A stretch of 27,280 bases of DNA, from IMG/VR virus record IMGVR_UViG_2534681604_000001. One strand, 5' to 3'. The notes under the pieces are model-generated. The model did not search any database and was not told where the DNA came from. It saw only the letters and a list, made by a program, of their open reading frames with translations. The position numbers were made by a program, and so were the translations under genes. How positions within the stretch are numbered: position 1 is the first letter of the stretch; the number at the start of each line of letters is the position of its first letter. This document shows, in pieces, positions 3,112 to 26,246 of the stretch. Origin of the DNA: a virus (taxonomy: Duplodnaviria; Heunggongvirae; Uroviricota; Caudoviricetes).

Positions 3112-3760
3112 TGGCAGCAAATACCGAAATATTTGGGTAGTTGGCGATCTGCACGGATGCTACACGAACCTGATGAAAAAACTGGAGACGATAGGATTCG
3201 ACACCAAAAAAGACCTGCTTATCTCGGTTGGCGATTTGGTCGATCGCGGTGCAGAGAACGTCGAATGCCTGGAATTAATCACATTCCCCTGGTTCAGAGC
3301 TGTACGTGGAAACCATGAGCAAATGATGATTGATGGCTTATCAGAGCGCGGAAACGTCAATCACTGGATGCTTAATGGCGGTGGCTGGTTCTTTAATCTC
3401 GATTACGACAAAGAAATTCTGGCTAAAGCTCTTGCCCATAAAGCAGATGAACTTCCGTTAATCATCGAACTGGTGAGTAAAGGTAAAAAATATGTCATCT
3501 GCCACGCCGATTATCCTTGTGACGAATACGAGTTTGGAAAGCCAGTTGATCATCAGCAGGTAATCTGGAACCGCGAACGAATCAGCAACTCACAAGACGG
3601 GATCGTGAAAGAAATCAAAGGAGCGGACACGTTCATCTTTGGTCATACGCCAGCAGTGAAACCACTCAAGTTTGCCAACCAGATGTATATCGATACCGGC
3701 GCAGTGTTCTGCGGAAACCTCACATTGATTCAGGTACAGGGAGAAGGCGCATGGGCATAA
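3089..3760 (+). CDS. ninI: NinI serine/threonine protein phosphatase (lambda PPase type)
   Basis: [29 protein letters not shown]…GDLVDRG…GNHE… carries calcineurin-like metallophosphatase motifs and is recognised as lambda NinI. ATG at 3089 is preceded by gaaagag. Confidence 0.9.
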
Positions 3761-4269
3761 GAGAACTAAACCTCACCAAAGAGCAGCACGAGTGGCTGAA
3801 TGGCTGGCTTGAACTGTGGGGCGCATGGGTTTATTCAGGTCGTCTGGAAAAGCGCATGAGCAGCGTAATAGCGAAGTTCATGGAGAGCGTAGAGCCGGGA
3901 AGAGTTATGACAAGGCCAATGTGCAATGATGATGATGGAATGTTGATTTCTCAGGTCGTCGATTCCGTCATGTACATTGACAAAAAAGCCTTTGGCATCC
4001 TCCTCAGCTACTACGCTCATGGTTCATCTAAGCGAGCAATTGCATCCTACTATCACGCGACTGCAAAGCCACGCAAGATGTGTGGACGTGGTGGCGAGGG
4101 ATGGAGAAAACCTTCACTGGCAACCTGTAGAAACGAAATTGACGACATCCTGAAAGCGTCATTATTTGTTTTATACCAGCCAATGCAAAATGCTTTCAAA
4201 ATGCGTAAACGTGTTGAGAAAGTTAAGCATATTGCTGTTAAAAGCCTTGACATGCAATTAGCCATTTAG
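3751..4269 (+). CDS. Late-gene antiterminator Q, non-lambda type (QuuD / Phage_antitermQ-like)
   Basis: WLELWGAWV and CNDDDG motifs resemble the DLP12 QuuD-type antiterminator. Sits in the canonical Q position between ninI and the lysis genes. Confidence 0.7.
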
Positions 4270-4276
4270 CCATAAT
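4247..4276 (+). promoter_or_regulatory. Candidate sigma70 late promoter (PR'-like)
   Basis: -35 ttgaca (4247-4252), 18-nt spacer, -10 cataat (4271-4276), straddling the Q stop codon. Function not verifiable from sequence. Confidence 0.35.
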
Positions 4277-4286
4277 TAGCAGGTAA

Positions 4287-4328
4287 GCTGCCGTTAGTGA
4301 CTCTTAAGTTGCAACGGTGGCTTTTTTT
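4287..4328 (+). terminator. Intrinsic terminator after Q (tR'-like)
   Basis: 9-bp stem gctgccgtt/aacggtggc (including 2 G-U pairs), then seven T's at 4322-4328. Confidence 0.55.
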
Positions 4329-4332
4329 ATTT

Positions 4333-4407
4333 GGGTCAGTCGTATAAAGGTCATTACGGAAGGCTGTTAACCTTCTTATCGTGGTTCGAGTCCACGCTGT
4401 CCCGCCA
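4333..4407 (+). tRNA. tRNA-Asn-like (anticodon GUU), acceptor stem has one U-U mismatch
   Basis: Hand-folded cloverleaf: acceptor gggtcag/ctgtccc with U4-U69 mismatch; anticodon stem gaagg/ccttc, loop ctGTTaa; T arm cgtgg-ttcgagt-ccacg; discriminator G; encoded CCA. Anticodon loop and T loop match E. coli tRNA-Asn. Confidence 0.55.
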
Positions 4408-4412
4408 AACAT

Positions 4413-4488
4413 GCTGGTTTAGCTCCAATGGTAGAGCAGTCGCCTTGTAAGCGAATGGGTAGCGGTTCAAGTCCGTTAACCAGCACCA
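4413..4488 (+). tRNA. tRNA-Thr (anticodon UGU)
   Basis: Hand-folded 76-nt cloverleaf: acceptor gctggtt/aaccagc; D arm gctc-caatggta-gagc; anticodon loop ctTGTaa; T arm agcgg-ttcaagt-ccgtt; discriminator A; encoded CCA. Confidence 0.7.
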
Positions 4489-4576
4489 TAACTGAGCCGT
4501 AGCCACTGGCTATCCTGAATTCATCAGTGATAGTTATGCTGCGGCCTTCTACACATGACCTTCGTGAAAGCGGGTG

Positions 4577-4609
4577 GAAGGAGGTCGCGCTAACAACCTC
4601 CTCCGTTTT
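4577..4609 (+). terminator. Stem-loop with short U-tract (weak terminator or processing structure)
   Basis: 7-bp stem aggaggt/acctcct around a 10-nt loop, followed by gtttt. The 5' arm is an SD-like aaggaggt with no start codon downstream. Confidence 0.3.
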
Positions 4610-4709
4610 GCCCGTGCATATCGGTCACGAACAAATCTGATTACTAAACACAGTAGCCTGGATTTGTTCTATCAGTAATCGACCTTATTCCTAATTAAAT
4701 AGAGCAAAT

Positions 4710-4725
4710 CCCCTCAATGAAGGGG
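4710..4725 (+). promoter_or_regulatory. Hairpin sequestering the holin ribosome-binding region (sdi-like)
   Basis: cccct-caatga-agggg hairpin ends 6 nt before the first holin ATG (4732) and contains the purine-rich aagggg that would serve as SD. Confidence 0.4.
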
Positions 4726-4731
4726 TAGAGC

Positions 4732-4935
4732 ATGTACCGTATGGACAAAATCAGAGAATGGTTCAGTTACAGCTTCGGAGGACTGACTGCGATGGGTGGC
4801 ATTCTCTCCCTGAATGACTGGGCTGTCATCATTGGTATTCTTTGTACTGTCGGCACATTTGGCATCAACTGGTACTACAAGCGCAAAGAGCGCGAGGACA
4901 GATTGAATGGCAATGTCACCGGCACTACGAAATAG
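4732..4935 (+). CDS. Class II holin / pinholin (phage 21 S-type) with dual start
   Basis: Small protein with two TM segments, starts MYRMDKI… with ATGs at 4732 and 4741. Immediately precedes a SAR endolysin. Resembles S21 (MKSMDK…) dual-start architecture. Confidence 0.75.
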
Positions 4936-5410
4936 CGTAATAGCGGCGATAAGTGGCGGGGCTATTGCTATAGCATCTGTGTTAATCACTGGGCCAAGTG
5001 GTAACGATGGTCTGGAAGGTGTCAGCTACATACCATACAAAGATATTGTTGGTGTATGGACTGTATGTCACGGACACACCGGAAAAGACATCATGCTCGG
5101 TAAAACGTATACCGAAGCAGAATGCAAAGCCCTCCTGAATAAAGACCTTGCCACGGTCGCCAGACAAATTAACCCGTACATCAAAGTCGATATACCGGAA
5201 ACAACGCGCGGCGCTCTTTACTCGTTCGTCTACAACGTGGGGGCTGGCAATTTCAGAACATCGACGCTTCTTCGCAAAATAAACCAGGGCGATATCAAGG
5301 GCGCATGTGACCAGCTACGTCGCTGGGCATACGCTGGCGGTAAGCAATGGAAAGGCCTGATGACTCGTCGTGAGATTGAGCGTGAGGTCTGTTTGTGGGG
5401 GCAACAATGA
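4907..5410 (+). CDS. R: SAR endolysin (phage 21 R-type, T4 E-like lysozyme, GH24)
   Basis: N-terminal Gly/Ala-rich signal-anchor-release domain ([21 protein letters not shown]), followed by [23 protein letters not shown] catalytic region. Recognised as phage 21 R-like. gagga 8 nt upstream of ATG 4907. Confidence 0.9.
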
Positions 5411-5874
5411 GCAGGGTAACCGCGATTATCTCCGCTCTGGTTATCTGCATCATCGTCTGCCTGTCATGGGCTGTTAATCATTACCGTGATAATGCAATCG
5501 CCTACAAAGAACAGCGCGATAACAAGGCCAGTGAACTGGAGAAGGCGAACGCCACCATTACTGACATGCAGCAGCGCCAGCGTGATGCTGATGCACTCGA
5601 TGATAAATACACGAAGGAGTTAGCTGATGCGAAAGCTGAAAATGATGCTCTTCGGCGCAAGCTTGATAATGGTGGTCGGGTGCTCGTCAAAGGAAAATGC
5701 CCTGTGCCATCCTCAGCCGAAACCTCCAGCGCCTCCGGCATGGGCAATGATGCCACCGTCGAACTCTCTCCAGTTGCTGGACGAAACGTTCTCGGTATCC
5801 GGGACGGAATTATCCGCGACCAAACAGCACTGAGAACGCTTCAGGAATACATCAGGACGCAATGCCTTCGATGA
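5407..5874 (+). CDS. Rz: Rz i-spanin
   Basis: [31 protein letters not shown]… recognised as lambda Rz (N-terminal TM, coiled coil). ATG at 5407 overlaps the endolysin stop as ATGA. Confidence 0.9.
5627..5833 (+). CDS. Rz1: Rz1 o-spanin (lipoprotein, embedded in +1 frame of Rz)
   Basis: [23 protein letters not shown]… has a lipobox (VVGC) and Pro-rich region. Lies entirely inside Rz in another frame; aaggag 7 nt upstream of the ATG. Confidence 0.85.
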
Positions 5875-22769: not shown

Positions 22770-25700
22770 ATGGGTAAAGGCAGCAGTAAGGGGCATACCC
22801 CGCGCGAAGCGAAGGACAACCTGAAGTCCACGCAGTTGCTGAGTGTGATCGATGCCATCAGCGAAGGGCCGATTGAAGGTCCGGTGGATGGATTAAAAAG
22901 CGTGCTGCTGAACAGTACGCCAGTGCTGGACAGTGAGGGGAATACCAACATCTCCGGCGTCACGGTGGTGTTCCGGGCAGGTGAGCAGGAGCAGACACCG
23001 CCTGAGGGGTTTGAATCCTCCGGCTCCGAGACGGTGCTGGGTACGGAAGTGAAATACGACACGCCGATCATCCGGACCATCACGTCGGCAAACATCGACC
23101 GTCTGCGTTTTACCTTCGGTGTGCAGGCTCTGGTGGAAACCACCTCAAAAGGGGACCGGAATCCATCGGAAGTCCGCCTGCTGGTTCAGATACAACGTAA
23201 CGGTGGCTGGGTGACGGAAAAAGACATCACCATTAAGGGCAAAACCACCTCGCAGTATCTGGCATCGGTAGTGGTGGATAACCTGCCGCCGCGCCCGTTC
23301 AATATCCGGATGCGCAGGATGACACCGGACAGCACCACAGACCAGTTGCAGAACAAAACGCTCTGGTCGTCATACACCGAAATCATCGATGTGAAACAGT
23401 GCTACCCGAACACGGCACTGGTTGGCGTACAGGTGGACTCAGAGCAGTTCGGCAGTCAGCAGGTGAGCCGTAATTATCATCTTCGCGGGCGTATTCTGCA
23501 GGTGCCGTCGAACTATAACCCGCAGACGCGGCAATACAGCGGTATCTGGGACGGAACGTTTAAGCCAGCATACAGCAACAACATGGCCTGGTGTCTGTGG
23601 GATATGCTGACCCATCCGCGCTACGGCATGGGGAAACGTCTTGGTGCGGCGGATGTGGACAAATGGGCGCTGTATGTCATCGGCCAGCATTGCGATCAGT
23701 CGGTGCCGGACGGTTTTGGCGGCACGGAGCCGCGCATCACCTGTAATGCGTACCTGACCACACAGCGCAAGGCGTGGGATGTGCTCAGTGATTTCTGCTC
23801 TGCGATGCGCTGTATGCCGGTATGGAACGGGCAGACGCTGACGTTCGTGCAGGACCGGCCATCGGATAAGGTGTGGACCTATAACCGCAGTAATGTGGTG
23901 ATGCCGGATGATGGCGCGCCGTTCCGCTACAGCTTCAGCGCCCTGAAGGACCGCCATAATGCCGTTGAGGTGAACTGGATTGACCCGAATAACGGCTGGG
24001 AGACGGCGACAGAGCTTGTTGAAGATACGCAGGCCATTCTCCGTTACGGTCGTAATGTCACGAAGATGGACGCCTTTGGCTGTACCAGCCGGGGGCAGGC
24101 ACACCGAGCCGGGCTGTGGCTGATTAAAACGGAGCTGCTGGAAACGCAGACCGTGGATTTCAGCGTGGGCGCAGAAGGGCTTCGCCATGTACCGGGCGAT
24201 GTCATTGAAATCTGCGATGATGACTATGCGGGGATCAGCATCGGCGGGCGTGTGCTGGCGGTGAACAGCCAGACCCGGACACTGACGCTCGACCGTGAAA
24301 TCACGCTGCCATCTTCCGGCACCACGCTGATAAGCCTGGTTGACGGACAGGGGAATCCGGTCAGCGTGGAGGTCCAGTCCGTCACCGACGGCGTGAAGGT
24401 GAAAGTGAGCCGGGTTCCTGACGGCGTTGCCGAGTACAGCGTGTGGGGGCTGAAGCTGCCGACGCTGCGCCAGCGCCTGTTCCGCTGTGTGAGTATCCGT
24501 GAGAATGACGACGGCACGTATGCCATCACCGCCGTGCAGCATGTACCGGCAAAAGAGGCCATCGTGGATAACGGGGCGCACTTTGACGGTGACCAGAGCG
24601 GCACGGTGAATGGTGTCACGCCGCCAGCGGTGCAGCACCTGACCGCCGAAGTCACCGCAGACAGCGGGGAATATCAGGTGCTGGCGCGCTGGGACACGCC
24701 GAAGGTGGTGAAGGGCGTGAACTTCCTGCTTCGCCTGACCGTGGCTGCGGATGATGGCAGTGAACGGCTGGTCAGCACGGCCCGGACGACGGAAACCACA
24801 TACCGCTTCAGGCAACTGGCGCTGGGAAATTACAGGCTGACAGTCCGGGCGGCAAATGCCTGGGGGCAGCAGGGCGATCCGGCATCGGTATCGTTCCGGA
24901 TTGCCGCACCGGCAGCGCCGTCGCGGATTGAGCTGACGCCGGGCTATTTTCAGATAACCGCCACGCCGCATCTTGCCGTTTATGACCCGACGGTACAGTT
25001 TGAATTCTGGTTCTCGGAAAAGCGGATTGCGGATATCAGGCAGGTTGAAACCACAGCCCGCTATCTTGGCACGGCGCTGTACTGGATAGCTGCCAGTATC
25101 AATATCAAACCGGGCCATGATTATTATTTTTATGTTCGCAGTGTGAACACCGTTGGCAAATCGGCATTTGTGGAGGCTGTTGGTCAGCCGAGTGATGATG
25201 CGTCCGGCTATCTGGATTTTTTCAAAGGAGAGATAGGGAAAACCCATCTGGCTCAGGAGCTGTGGACGCAGATTGATAACGGTCAGCTTGCGCCTGACCT
25301 GACTGAAATCAGGACGTCCATAACGGATGTCAGCAATGAAATAACACAGACCGTCAATAAGAAACTGGAAGACCAGAGTGCAGCGATCCAGCAGATACAG
25401 AAGGTTCAGGTTGATACAAATAATAACCTGAACAGCATGTGGGCAGTGAAGCTGCAGCAGATGCAGGACGGACGCCTTTATATTGCGGGTATCGGTGCCG
25501 GTATTGAGAACACCCCCGACGGCATGCAGAGTCAGGTGCTGCTGGCTGCAGACCGGGTGGCATTTATTAACCCGGCGAATGGTAACACCACTCCTGCACT
25601 GGTCACACAGGGCGGACAGACGTTTATTAATGAGGCGCTGATCAAGTTCCTTATTGCTCCCACGATTACCAGTGGTGGCAATCCTCCGGCATTCTCCCTG

Positions 25701-26246
25701 ACACCTGACGGAAAGCTGACTGCTAAAAATGCGGATATCAGTGGCAGTGTGAATGCGAACGCCGGGACGCTCAACAACGTCACGATTAATGAGAGCTGTA
25801 CTATTAAGGGGATGCTTGATGCTAACCAGGTGCGTGGTGATTTTGTAAAAACGACAGGGCATCGATTTCCGCACCCCGGAGAATACCCACAGGGTTCACT
25901 TACCGTTCATATTAAGGACGATCATGCCTTTGACAGGCAGATTATAATTCAACCAATCATGTACGGTGCACCACCATATTTTAGTAAAAATGATGGCGCT
26001 AATATCTACGATACCTGCAGATTAATTGTGCGCAAAAATGGCAATGTAATCTATGACAAATCCACTAGTGGTTCGAAAAGGACAACAGTCGTGTACAGCA
26101 ATATCATTGATATGCCAGTGGGGGACGGAGATGTAATATTAACATTTGAAGTTCAGTCGAGCGGCAGTGGAGATCCCAGAACATGGATCAGTGATTTAAT
26201 GGTCTCGGTAACGAAAAAAGCCGCATCCGGTATCAGTATCAGTTGA
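22770..26246 (+). CDS. J: Tail tip / host-specificity protein J, with a divergent C-terminal domain
   Basis: 1158-aa protein. The N-terminal ~1000 aa are recognised as lambda gpJ; the last ~150 aa differ from lambda J as I recall it, and the encoding DNA is AT-richer. Confidence 0.9.

Follow-up and report, generated by a model that had tools for sequence, protein, structure and literature searches.

Tandem genes for an Asn(GUU) and a Thr(UGU) tRNA downstream of the antiterminator gene Q were described in the genome paper of phage SfI (2013), which noted one or both of these tRNAs in Sf6, ST64T, PS3 and p21 and called the tRNA-Asn's significance 'not clear'. Two nucleases characterized in 2025 target the same isoacceptors in the host. 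Govande et al. (NAR 2025; PMC12445682) found that P2-Old is lethal because it cuts the anticodon arm off host tRNA-ThrU at paired CNG motifs (nucleotides 28–30 and 40–42), and that phage Thr(UGU) tRNAs rescue cells exposed to it. The tRNA of phage 21 ('tRNA-Thr21') protected cells against P2-Old and resisted cleavage in vitro; its rescue of P2-Old toxicity was obtained with plasmid expression, and its resistance was put down to an anticodon stem that is shorter and to changed pairs close to the two cut sites (PMC12445682). Protection by the related tRNA-Thr6 required the UGU anticodon and worked by restoring ACA decoding, thrU being the sole UGU decoder in E. coli, and host tRNA-Asn(GUU) was among the tRNAs followed for the kinetics of P2-Old cleavage (PMC12445682). 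[quoted passage not shown] Its targets have in common the motif U36-A-A-U39-C40, substitution of U39 abolishes cleavage of tRNA-Lys, and the T5 variants of tRNA-Lys, of tRNA-Thr(UGU) and of tRNA-Asn(GUU) together neutralise PARIS (PMC12409363).

Here we analysed a 27,280-bp stretch of caudoviral DNA (hereafter the window). Scanning the whole window, ARAGORN found exactly two tRNA genes, both on the plus strand and both with an encoded CCA: tRNA-Asn(GUU) at 4,333–4,407 (75 nt) and tRNA-Thr(UGU) at 4,413–4,488 (76 nt), separated by the 5-nt spacer AACAT (4,408–4,412, plus strand). Rfam model RF00005, which has a gathering score of 29, matched each gene at full length (cmscan, model positions 1–71), with 55.3 bits for the Asn gene (E = 1.4e-9) and 61.5 bits for the Thr gene (E = 3e-11). 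Because two independent predictors call both, with scores far beyond chance, these are genuine tRNA genes. A preliminary description of this DNA, made from its sequence, had proposed two cloverleaf tRNAs with encoded CCA ends at 4,333–4,488; ARAGORN confirmed the coordinates, the CCA ends are seen in the sequence, and neither ARAGORN nor Rfam rejected either fold. The spacing is itself conserved, as a 5-nt Asn–Thr offset was found in 102 of the 108 loci with a Thr gene in our allele survey.

The preliminary description also placed the pair between Q and the lysis genes, directly after the post-Q terminator, and the surrounding annotation agrees. Upstream lies a late antiterminator gene of the Q21 family (3,751–4,269, plus strand, 172 aa; Pfam Phage_antitermQ, 90.3 bits), and its product shares 99% identity with Sf6 gp59 and 85% with the Q protein of phage 21. 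The end of this reading frame is overlapped by a late promoter, pR' (4,247–4,276, plus strand; TTGACA-18-CATAAT, 11 of 12 matches in a promoter scan), at a position that corresponds in alignment to the annotated pR'/QBE of phage 21 and to 'P R'' of Sf6. Between the hexamers we found the direct repeat ATTAGCC/TTTAGCC (about 4,257–4,271), by its position a candidate Q-binding element. RNA folding placed an intrinsic terminator, tR', at 4,285–4,332 (plus strand), with a hairpin at 4,285–4,323 (−20.2 kcal/mol, z = −3.6) and a U-tract that ends at 4,332, one base before the first nucleotide of tRNA-Asn; it is identical to the terminators that are annotated in phage 21 and Sf6. Behind tRNA-Thr runs a structured untranslated leader of 243 nt (4,489–4,731, plus strand; minimum free energy −83.4 kcal/mol, z = −5.4) with homology to the leader that precedes S in lambda. 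When 4,200–4,760 was searched permissively against Rfam, nothing beyond the two tRNAs was returned, the leader having no match. Genes for a holin (4,732–4,935; Pfam Phage_holin_2_3), a lysozyme (endolysin; 4,907–5,410; Phage_lysozyme) and Rz (5,395–5,874; Phage_lysis), all on the plus strand, follow in the same transcription unit, and lambda-type virion genes come after them.

The promoter scan showed no further promoter-like site between tR' and the tRNAs. Since pR' is the only promoter-like site upstream and tR' abuts tRNA-Asn, expression of the tRNAs is probably Q-dependent. RNA polymerase starting at pR' would normally stop at tR', and polymerase modified by Q would read through it, so that the two tRNAs would form the first part of the late transcript. 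Host RNase P would then cut at the first nucleotide of each tRNA, endo- and exonucleases would trim the 3' sides to the encoded CCA, and AsnRS and ThrRS would charge the products, steps that we take from standard E. coli tRNA maturation.

As the literature suggests, the pair is already known: it is annotated in phage records and in RefSeq and has been published since at least 2013. Over the segment 4,280–4,520, phage 21, Sf6, BTP1 and several dozen Salmonella phages of the P22-like group match at 99–100% identity, and many of the matching phage records carry annotations for both tRNA-Asn and tRNA-Thr. The segment matches 833 of 5,426 complete E. coli genomes (~15%), with both tRNAs annotated by RefSeq in 20 of 20 records among the E. 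coli matches listed; the closest records to the window are E. coli chromosomal prophages. Across the surveyed loci, the arrays were of the types Asn–Thr (96 loci), Asn–Gly (7), Asn–Phe–Thr–Arg with or without Gly (7) and Asn alone (3). The terminator upstream of the array varies, and tRNA-Asn is the constant member. Phage L/ST64T retains tRNA-Asn, whereas its second tRNA is degenerated, annotated as Leu(UAA) and not called by ARAGORN.

Phage lambda is 96% identical to the window over 84% of the first 25 kb of the window, yet its Q–S interval contains no tRNA detectable by ARAGORN and no tRNA remnant detectable by a permissive Rfam search. Directly past the 3' end of tRNA-Thr the window becomes homologous to lambda again, marking a mosaic junction. 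Because homology restarts right behind tRNA-Thr, the tRNAs belong to an exchangeable Q/pR'/tR' module, and the two travel as a cassette with late modules of the Q21 type. We rejected the idea that lambda retains a vestige of the cassette: no remnant was found, and the short similarity at the junction is the mosaic boundary. The late genes of lambda are ~96% identical to those of the window; since lambda manages without the tRNAs, such genes do not need them for ordinary decoding.

The preliminary description held that the Asn gene keeps the anticodon loop, T loop and discriminator of E. coli tRNA-Asn, and comparison with asnT bears this out (anticodon loop CUGUUAA, T loop UUCGAGU, G73-CCA). 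It had also remarked on a U4–U69 mismatch and a short D arm; cmscan flags both 4–69 and 13–22 as non-standard pairs ('v'), the U13–U22 opposition leaving a D stem of three Watson–Crick pairs, and the D arm is unformed in the minimum-energy fold of the bare sequence. The gene further has a 4-nt variable loop and G1–C72 alongside G73. The identity set of E. coli AsnRS includes G34, U35 and U36 of the anticodon together with the discriminator G73. All four are present in the predicted tRNA, as are U8, A14, G18–G19, U33, A37, the T loop and the CCA end.

The predicted tRNA-Thr has the acceptor stem GCUGGUU/AACCAGC, the anticodon UGU and A73. E. coli ThrRS recognizes G1–C72, C2–G71, G35 and U36, and the sequence of the gene supplies each of these. 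This tRNA does not fold quite as cleanly as the preliminary description held: in its anticodon stem a G27–A43 mismatch leaves 4 bp, with U28–A42 and G39, a shortening to which the published work assigns importance for function. None of the 14 sampled Thr alleles of phage or recombinant type has the 27–43 pair, which occurs only in host thrU and in a single host-like recombinant.

To characterize conservation, we surveyed alleles at ~120 loci drawn from IMG/VR, GenBank phages and species-representative genomes, the last of which contributed 6 loci only and added little covariation. The Asn allele of the window is dominant (96 of ~120 sampled copies identical) and occurs in Escherichia, Salmonella, Shigella and Shimwellia. 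Compensatory double changes mark 6–67, 7–66 and 28–42 in the allele of a Klebsiella prophage, in which U4–U69 persists. Single alleles have G69 (phage Oslo, giving a U–G pair) or G4 (giving a G–U pair), and rare variants have C69, A71 or an altered discriminator. Although allele numbers were small (12 for Asn and 16 for Thr), 4 Asn pairs had changed on both sides, a count matched by 0 of 500 shuffles and compared with 0–1 pairs in controls with slid partners. For Thr, 8 pairs had changed on both sides (3–70, 5–68, 6–67, 28–42, 29–41, 31–39, 49–65 and 50–64; 25 cells), compared with 0–2 in slid controls. Paired cells made up 88% for Asn, against 19–55% with slid partners (Asn and Thr controls together), and 94% for Thr, against 19–51% in slid controls. 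The helices of both tRNAs are maintained by compensatory substitutions among homologues.

The D arm, 4-nt variable loop and C39 of the Asn gene recur in tRNA-Asn of a Mosigvirus, an Erwinia jumbo phage and a Klebsiella phage. In these three (vB_EcoM_WFK, pEa_SNUABM_50 and KP13-16), the D arm UCGUAUAAAGGUYAUUAC is shared with the window, and the variable loop length, C39, G73 and U4 are also as in the window. The Asn gene thus belongs to a phage-borne tRNA-Asn lineage. The virulent phages have a U4–G69 wobble where the lambdoid gene has U4–U69; because 4–69 is already a U–G wobble in their tRNA-Asn, the U–U opposition is a one-step change at an already weak pair and no sign of decay, although it could reduce the activity of the tRNA. 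The preliminary description had left the Asn gene as functional, decaying or a structured processing signal. Judged from conservation and compensatory change, the evidence favours a functional tRNA over the other two: the allele is near-invariant, its helices show compensatory changes, and it is the Thr gene, not the Asn gene, that decays in phage L/ST64T. That the host was a recent source was rejected for both tRNAs, which are ~55% (asnT) and ~70% (thrU) identical to their host counterparts and nearer to other phage tRNAs. An origin as an attP or tRNA fragment was likewise rejected, as each gene is complete, CCA included, and sits in the late leader, not beside int.

Base for base, the Thr gene of the window is phage 21 tRNA-Thr21. 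Resistance to P2-Old and rescue of exposed cells have therefore been published for the identical sequence. More generally, the two window tRNAs share their anticodons (UGU and GUU) with host tRNAs targeted by the nucleases, and both are altered from thrU and asnT at the published cleavage determinants of P2-Old and AriB. Host thrU has CUG/CAG at 28–30/40–42, a paired CNG, and UAAUC at 36–40; the window tRNA-Thr has UCG/CGA, with no CNG on either strand, and UAAGC, in addition to its G27–A43 mismatch. Host asnT has CGG/CCG, again a paired CNG, and UAAUC; the window tRNA-Asn has AAG/CUU, with no CNG, and UAACC. Position 37 is A in all four. Because AriB cuts Thr(UGU) and Asn(GUU), and the P2-Old work includes ThrU and Asn(GUU), the cassette comprises exactly the two non-Lys targets common to both nucleases.

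We therefore favour, with a probability of about 0.6, the reading that these tRNAs are late-expressed, nuclease-resistant spares, a role that is published for Thr and that we infer for Asn. Their altered anticodon stems would escape cutting by P2 Old or PARIS AriB, so that the late genes for lysis and virion proteins could still have their ACA and AAC/AAU codons read. For tRNA-Asn, the whole anti-nuclease role is predicted from its sequence. We suggest tentatively, with less than even confidence, that it may complete a counter-defence kit of two tRNAs borne by the Q21-type late module of lambdoid phages, and may, as tRNA-Thr21 does, withstand Toprim nucleases that cut the anticodon stem (P2 Old, PARIS AriB and relatives). 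Such a kit, if real, would explain why hundreds of prophages in E. coli and Salmonella have Asn together with Thr(UGU). None of the papers searched claims a counter-defence role for the lambdoid tRNA-Asn.

Several observations speak against tRNAs acting as spares. Loss of CNG is not universal, as the Asn alleles of Klebsiella and Phytobacter keep a paired CNG (CAG/CUG). The cassette contains no tRNA-Lys(UUU), the prime PARIS target, and because of this absence could not neutralise PARIS alone. Rescue from P2-Old toxicity by Thr tRNAs is only partial, with colonies staying small (PMC12445682). As to timing, the tRNAs would be made late, but the trigger of Old is the early Gam protein.

Other tRNases were also considered. 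tRNases that attack the acceptor stem, for instance CdiA-CT(EC869), might cut tRNA-Asn poorly on account of its atypical stem. This toxin requires G73 and a weak 1–72 pair, which host tRNA-Asn offers (U1–A72 with G73), and it cleaves a G1–C72 variant of tRNA-Gln inefficiently; the window tRNA-Asn combines G73 with G1–C72 and U4–U69. As a selective agent, HepS, the lambda J-triggered anticodon nuclease of Gifsy-1 that cuts Thr tRNAs, was not favoured, because it mainly targets Thr(GGU) and the phage tRNA-Thr has the same anticodon loop as the host tRNA.

A different account is that the tRNAs boost decoding of codons overused in late genes (ACA, and AAC/AAU), speeding synthesis of virion proteins. 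Codon usage of the late genes against the host, which the preliminary description had named as a check, gave a divided answer, with ACA mildly enriched and AAC not. Among Thr codons, the share of ACA was 14.4% in late genes and 26.8% in the nin–Q genes, compared with 10.5% in a sample of 15,080 codons from one 50-kb segment of E. coli K-12 (Fisher exact test for late genes, P = 0.04). The SfI paper likewise gave 17.3% ACA in the phage and 7.1% in the host, the phage L paper reported AAC as 24 of 25 Asn codons in the capsid gene, and E. coli has no UGU decoder besides thrU (PMC12445682). Late genes exceed the host sample in ACA by a small margin, however, and the account fails for Asn: the share of AAC among Asn codons is 56.5% here and 64.5% in the host sample, Asn codons overall number 38 per 1,000 compared with 35 in that sample, and the SfI authors also saw no Asn bias. 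Moreover, lambda expresses its ~96% identical late genes without any tRNA, and the cassette moves with the Q module and not with a structural-gene set, the same tRNAs occurring in lambda-like, P22-like and other phages. With AAC not enriched, and with lambda producing almost identical late proteins in the absence of these tRNAs, codon supplementation seems a weak and at most partial explanation, unlikely to be the main one, although it may contribute given the mild ACA enrichment.

Two further accounts play down the decoding role of one or both cloverleaves. In one, only tRNA-Thr is useful and tRNA-Asn is a partly disabled hitch-hiker between the terminator and the selected Thr gene, as its two non-standard pairs, its unformed D arm in the bare-sequence fold, the absence of Asn codon bias and the rare variants at 69, 71 and the discriminator might suggest. 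This we consider improbable: the 96 sampled copies are identical although flanks and partner tRNAs vary, Asn is constant in arrays while Thr decays in phage L/ST64T, compensatory changes occur at three Asn pairs, the AsnRS identity elements and conserved tRNA positions are intact, and 4–69 is already a weak U–G in related phage tRNA-Asn. In the other, both cloverleaves are mainly RNA-processing signals, with cuts by RNase P and RNase E freeing the late mRNA from its paused or terminated leader and defining a stable 5' end for the lysis message, and decoding would be incidental. The location of the tRNAs at the extreme 5' end of the late transcript, with the first nucleotide abutting the terminator U-tract and a highly structured leader downstream, fits such a function. 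Yet lambda and P22 have homologous late operons and leaders without any tRNA, a pure signal would not require the conserved anticodons, discriminator bases and encoded CCA, and the identical Thr tRNA protects against P2-Old, with protection by tRNA-Thr6 needing the UGU anticodon (PMC12445682). We regard a mainly processing role as very improbable, and retain resistant spare tRNAs as the preferred reading.

The pair itself adds nothing new and is useful here as an example that is well understood. With the 2025 work on P2 Old and PARIS, a feature called unclear in 2013 becomes a probable phage counter-defence. If tRNA-Asn is nuclease-resistant as well, temperate lambdoid phages would possess a minimal kit against tRNases, controlled by Q and directed at the defences of competitors of the P2 and P4 types.

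The closest described system is phage 21 (GenBank OL657228 and AJ237660), which is 100% identical to the window over both tRNA genes (4,333–4,488), has the same tR' and the same position between Q and the lysis genes, and in its record shows the tRNAs directly after the pR' promoter, QBE and terminator. The window differs from it in having Q and QBE of the Sf6 type, with a different repeat between the hexamers, a holin of a different family, and a leader past tRNA-Thr that is lambda-like and ~120 nt longer. The Sf6 record likewise gives tRNA-Asn followed by tRNA-Thr, labelled 'similar to phage 21'. In Sf6, BTP1, the P22-like phages (Lederbergvirus) and SfI, the late-leader DNA that holds the Asn and Thr pair is 99.6–100% identical to the window across 4,280–4,520, but these are podoviruses or myoviruses with unrelated virion genes, whereas the window encodes a lambda-type head and tail.

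Stx phages of the 933W type, which carry the tRNA genes ileZ-argN-argO between Q and stx, are comparable in that their tRNAs also lie just past a lambdoid late promoter and terminator and are expressed with the late genes. Those tRNAs differ from the present pair in being rare Ile and Arg decoders, and their classical explanation is rare-codon supplementation. The three virulent phages with related tRNA-Asn have no paired CNG in any of the three genes; they differ in that two of the three lack the encoded CCA that the window tRNA-Asn has, and in keeping the gene in large tRNA clusters where the window has it in a Q-controlled leader. T5 tRNAs resemble the window pair in being phage copies of targeted isoacceptors substituted around the 40|41 cut, and position 39 is not U in the tRNA-Thr and tRNA-Asn of either T5 or the window. 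T5, however, is virulent, encodes over 20 tRNAs that have promoters of their own and provides tRNA-Lys, which the window cassette lacks, and its Asn gene is of a different sequence lineage from that of the window.

Ten loci, one in E. albertii NBRC 107761 (about 5553-5628) and nine in IMG/VR, carry recombinant tRNA-Thr(UGU) alleles in which the 5' half is that of the phage tRNA-Thr and the 3' half resembles host thrU; the 3' half is fully host-like at one locus. A tRNA-Gly(UCC) lies next downstream. Most of the recombinant alleles have UCAUC rather than UCAGU at positions 39-43, so that one CNG motif is disrupted and the anticodon stem keeps just three pairs. ARAGORN made no tRNA call for these alleles. 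Nor did it give a call for the second tRNA of phage L/ST64T, annotated as tRNA-Leu(UAA) (781-852 in the phage L cII-101 locus). In alignment with the Thr gene, this sequence lacks 4 nt and is altered at many positions of the anticodon arm; it has the appearance of a Thr gene that has decayed, not of a Leu tRNA.

In Klebsiella phage ST16-OXA48phi5.2 the array is expanded to Asn-Phe(GAA)-Thr(UGU)-Arg(UCU), at 701-1020 of its locus, where both the upstream Q and the terminator are different. In its Asn allele, the paired CNG motif of the anticodon stem is restored (CAG/CUG); by contrast, the Thr allele of the same array retains the shortened stem. The Q-terminator-Asn-Thr cassette was also found, enterobacterial and near-identical, in two contigs from gut metagenome-assembled genomes (MAGs) labelled Segatella copri (L132) and Collinsella (L136). 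These MAGs are assigned to Bacteroidota and Actinomycetota; most probably, prophage DNA from Enterobacteriaceae was mis-binned into them as these contigs.

A 2026 paper describes an anticodon nuclease, HepS of Gifsy-1, that is triggered by lambda J and whose substrates are Thr tRNAs, GGU most strongly, with UGU and CGU also cleaved. Among the window's genes is one for a lambda-type J tail-tip protein (22770-26246, + strand).

Comparison with lambda showed that the Q21-type module gives way to lambda-like sequence at a mosaic junction located at about 4488-4495 of the window (lambda, about 44,930), with lambda homology beginning at AACTGAGCC. The junction is within a few bases of the 3' end of tRNA-Thr, a position suggesting that late-regulatory modules recombine with the end of this tRNA, or its flank, as their boundary. 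Between tRNA-Thr and the holin start runs an untranslated leader of 243 nt (4489-4731, + strand), which we assessed by minimum free energy (MFE) folding and shuffling. Its MFE is -83.4 kcal/mol (z = -5.4), a fold that none of 200 shuffled sequences equalled. The leader matched no Rfam family; the lambda leader upstream of S is approximately 95% identical to it.
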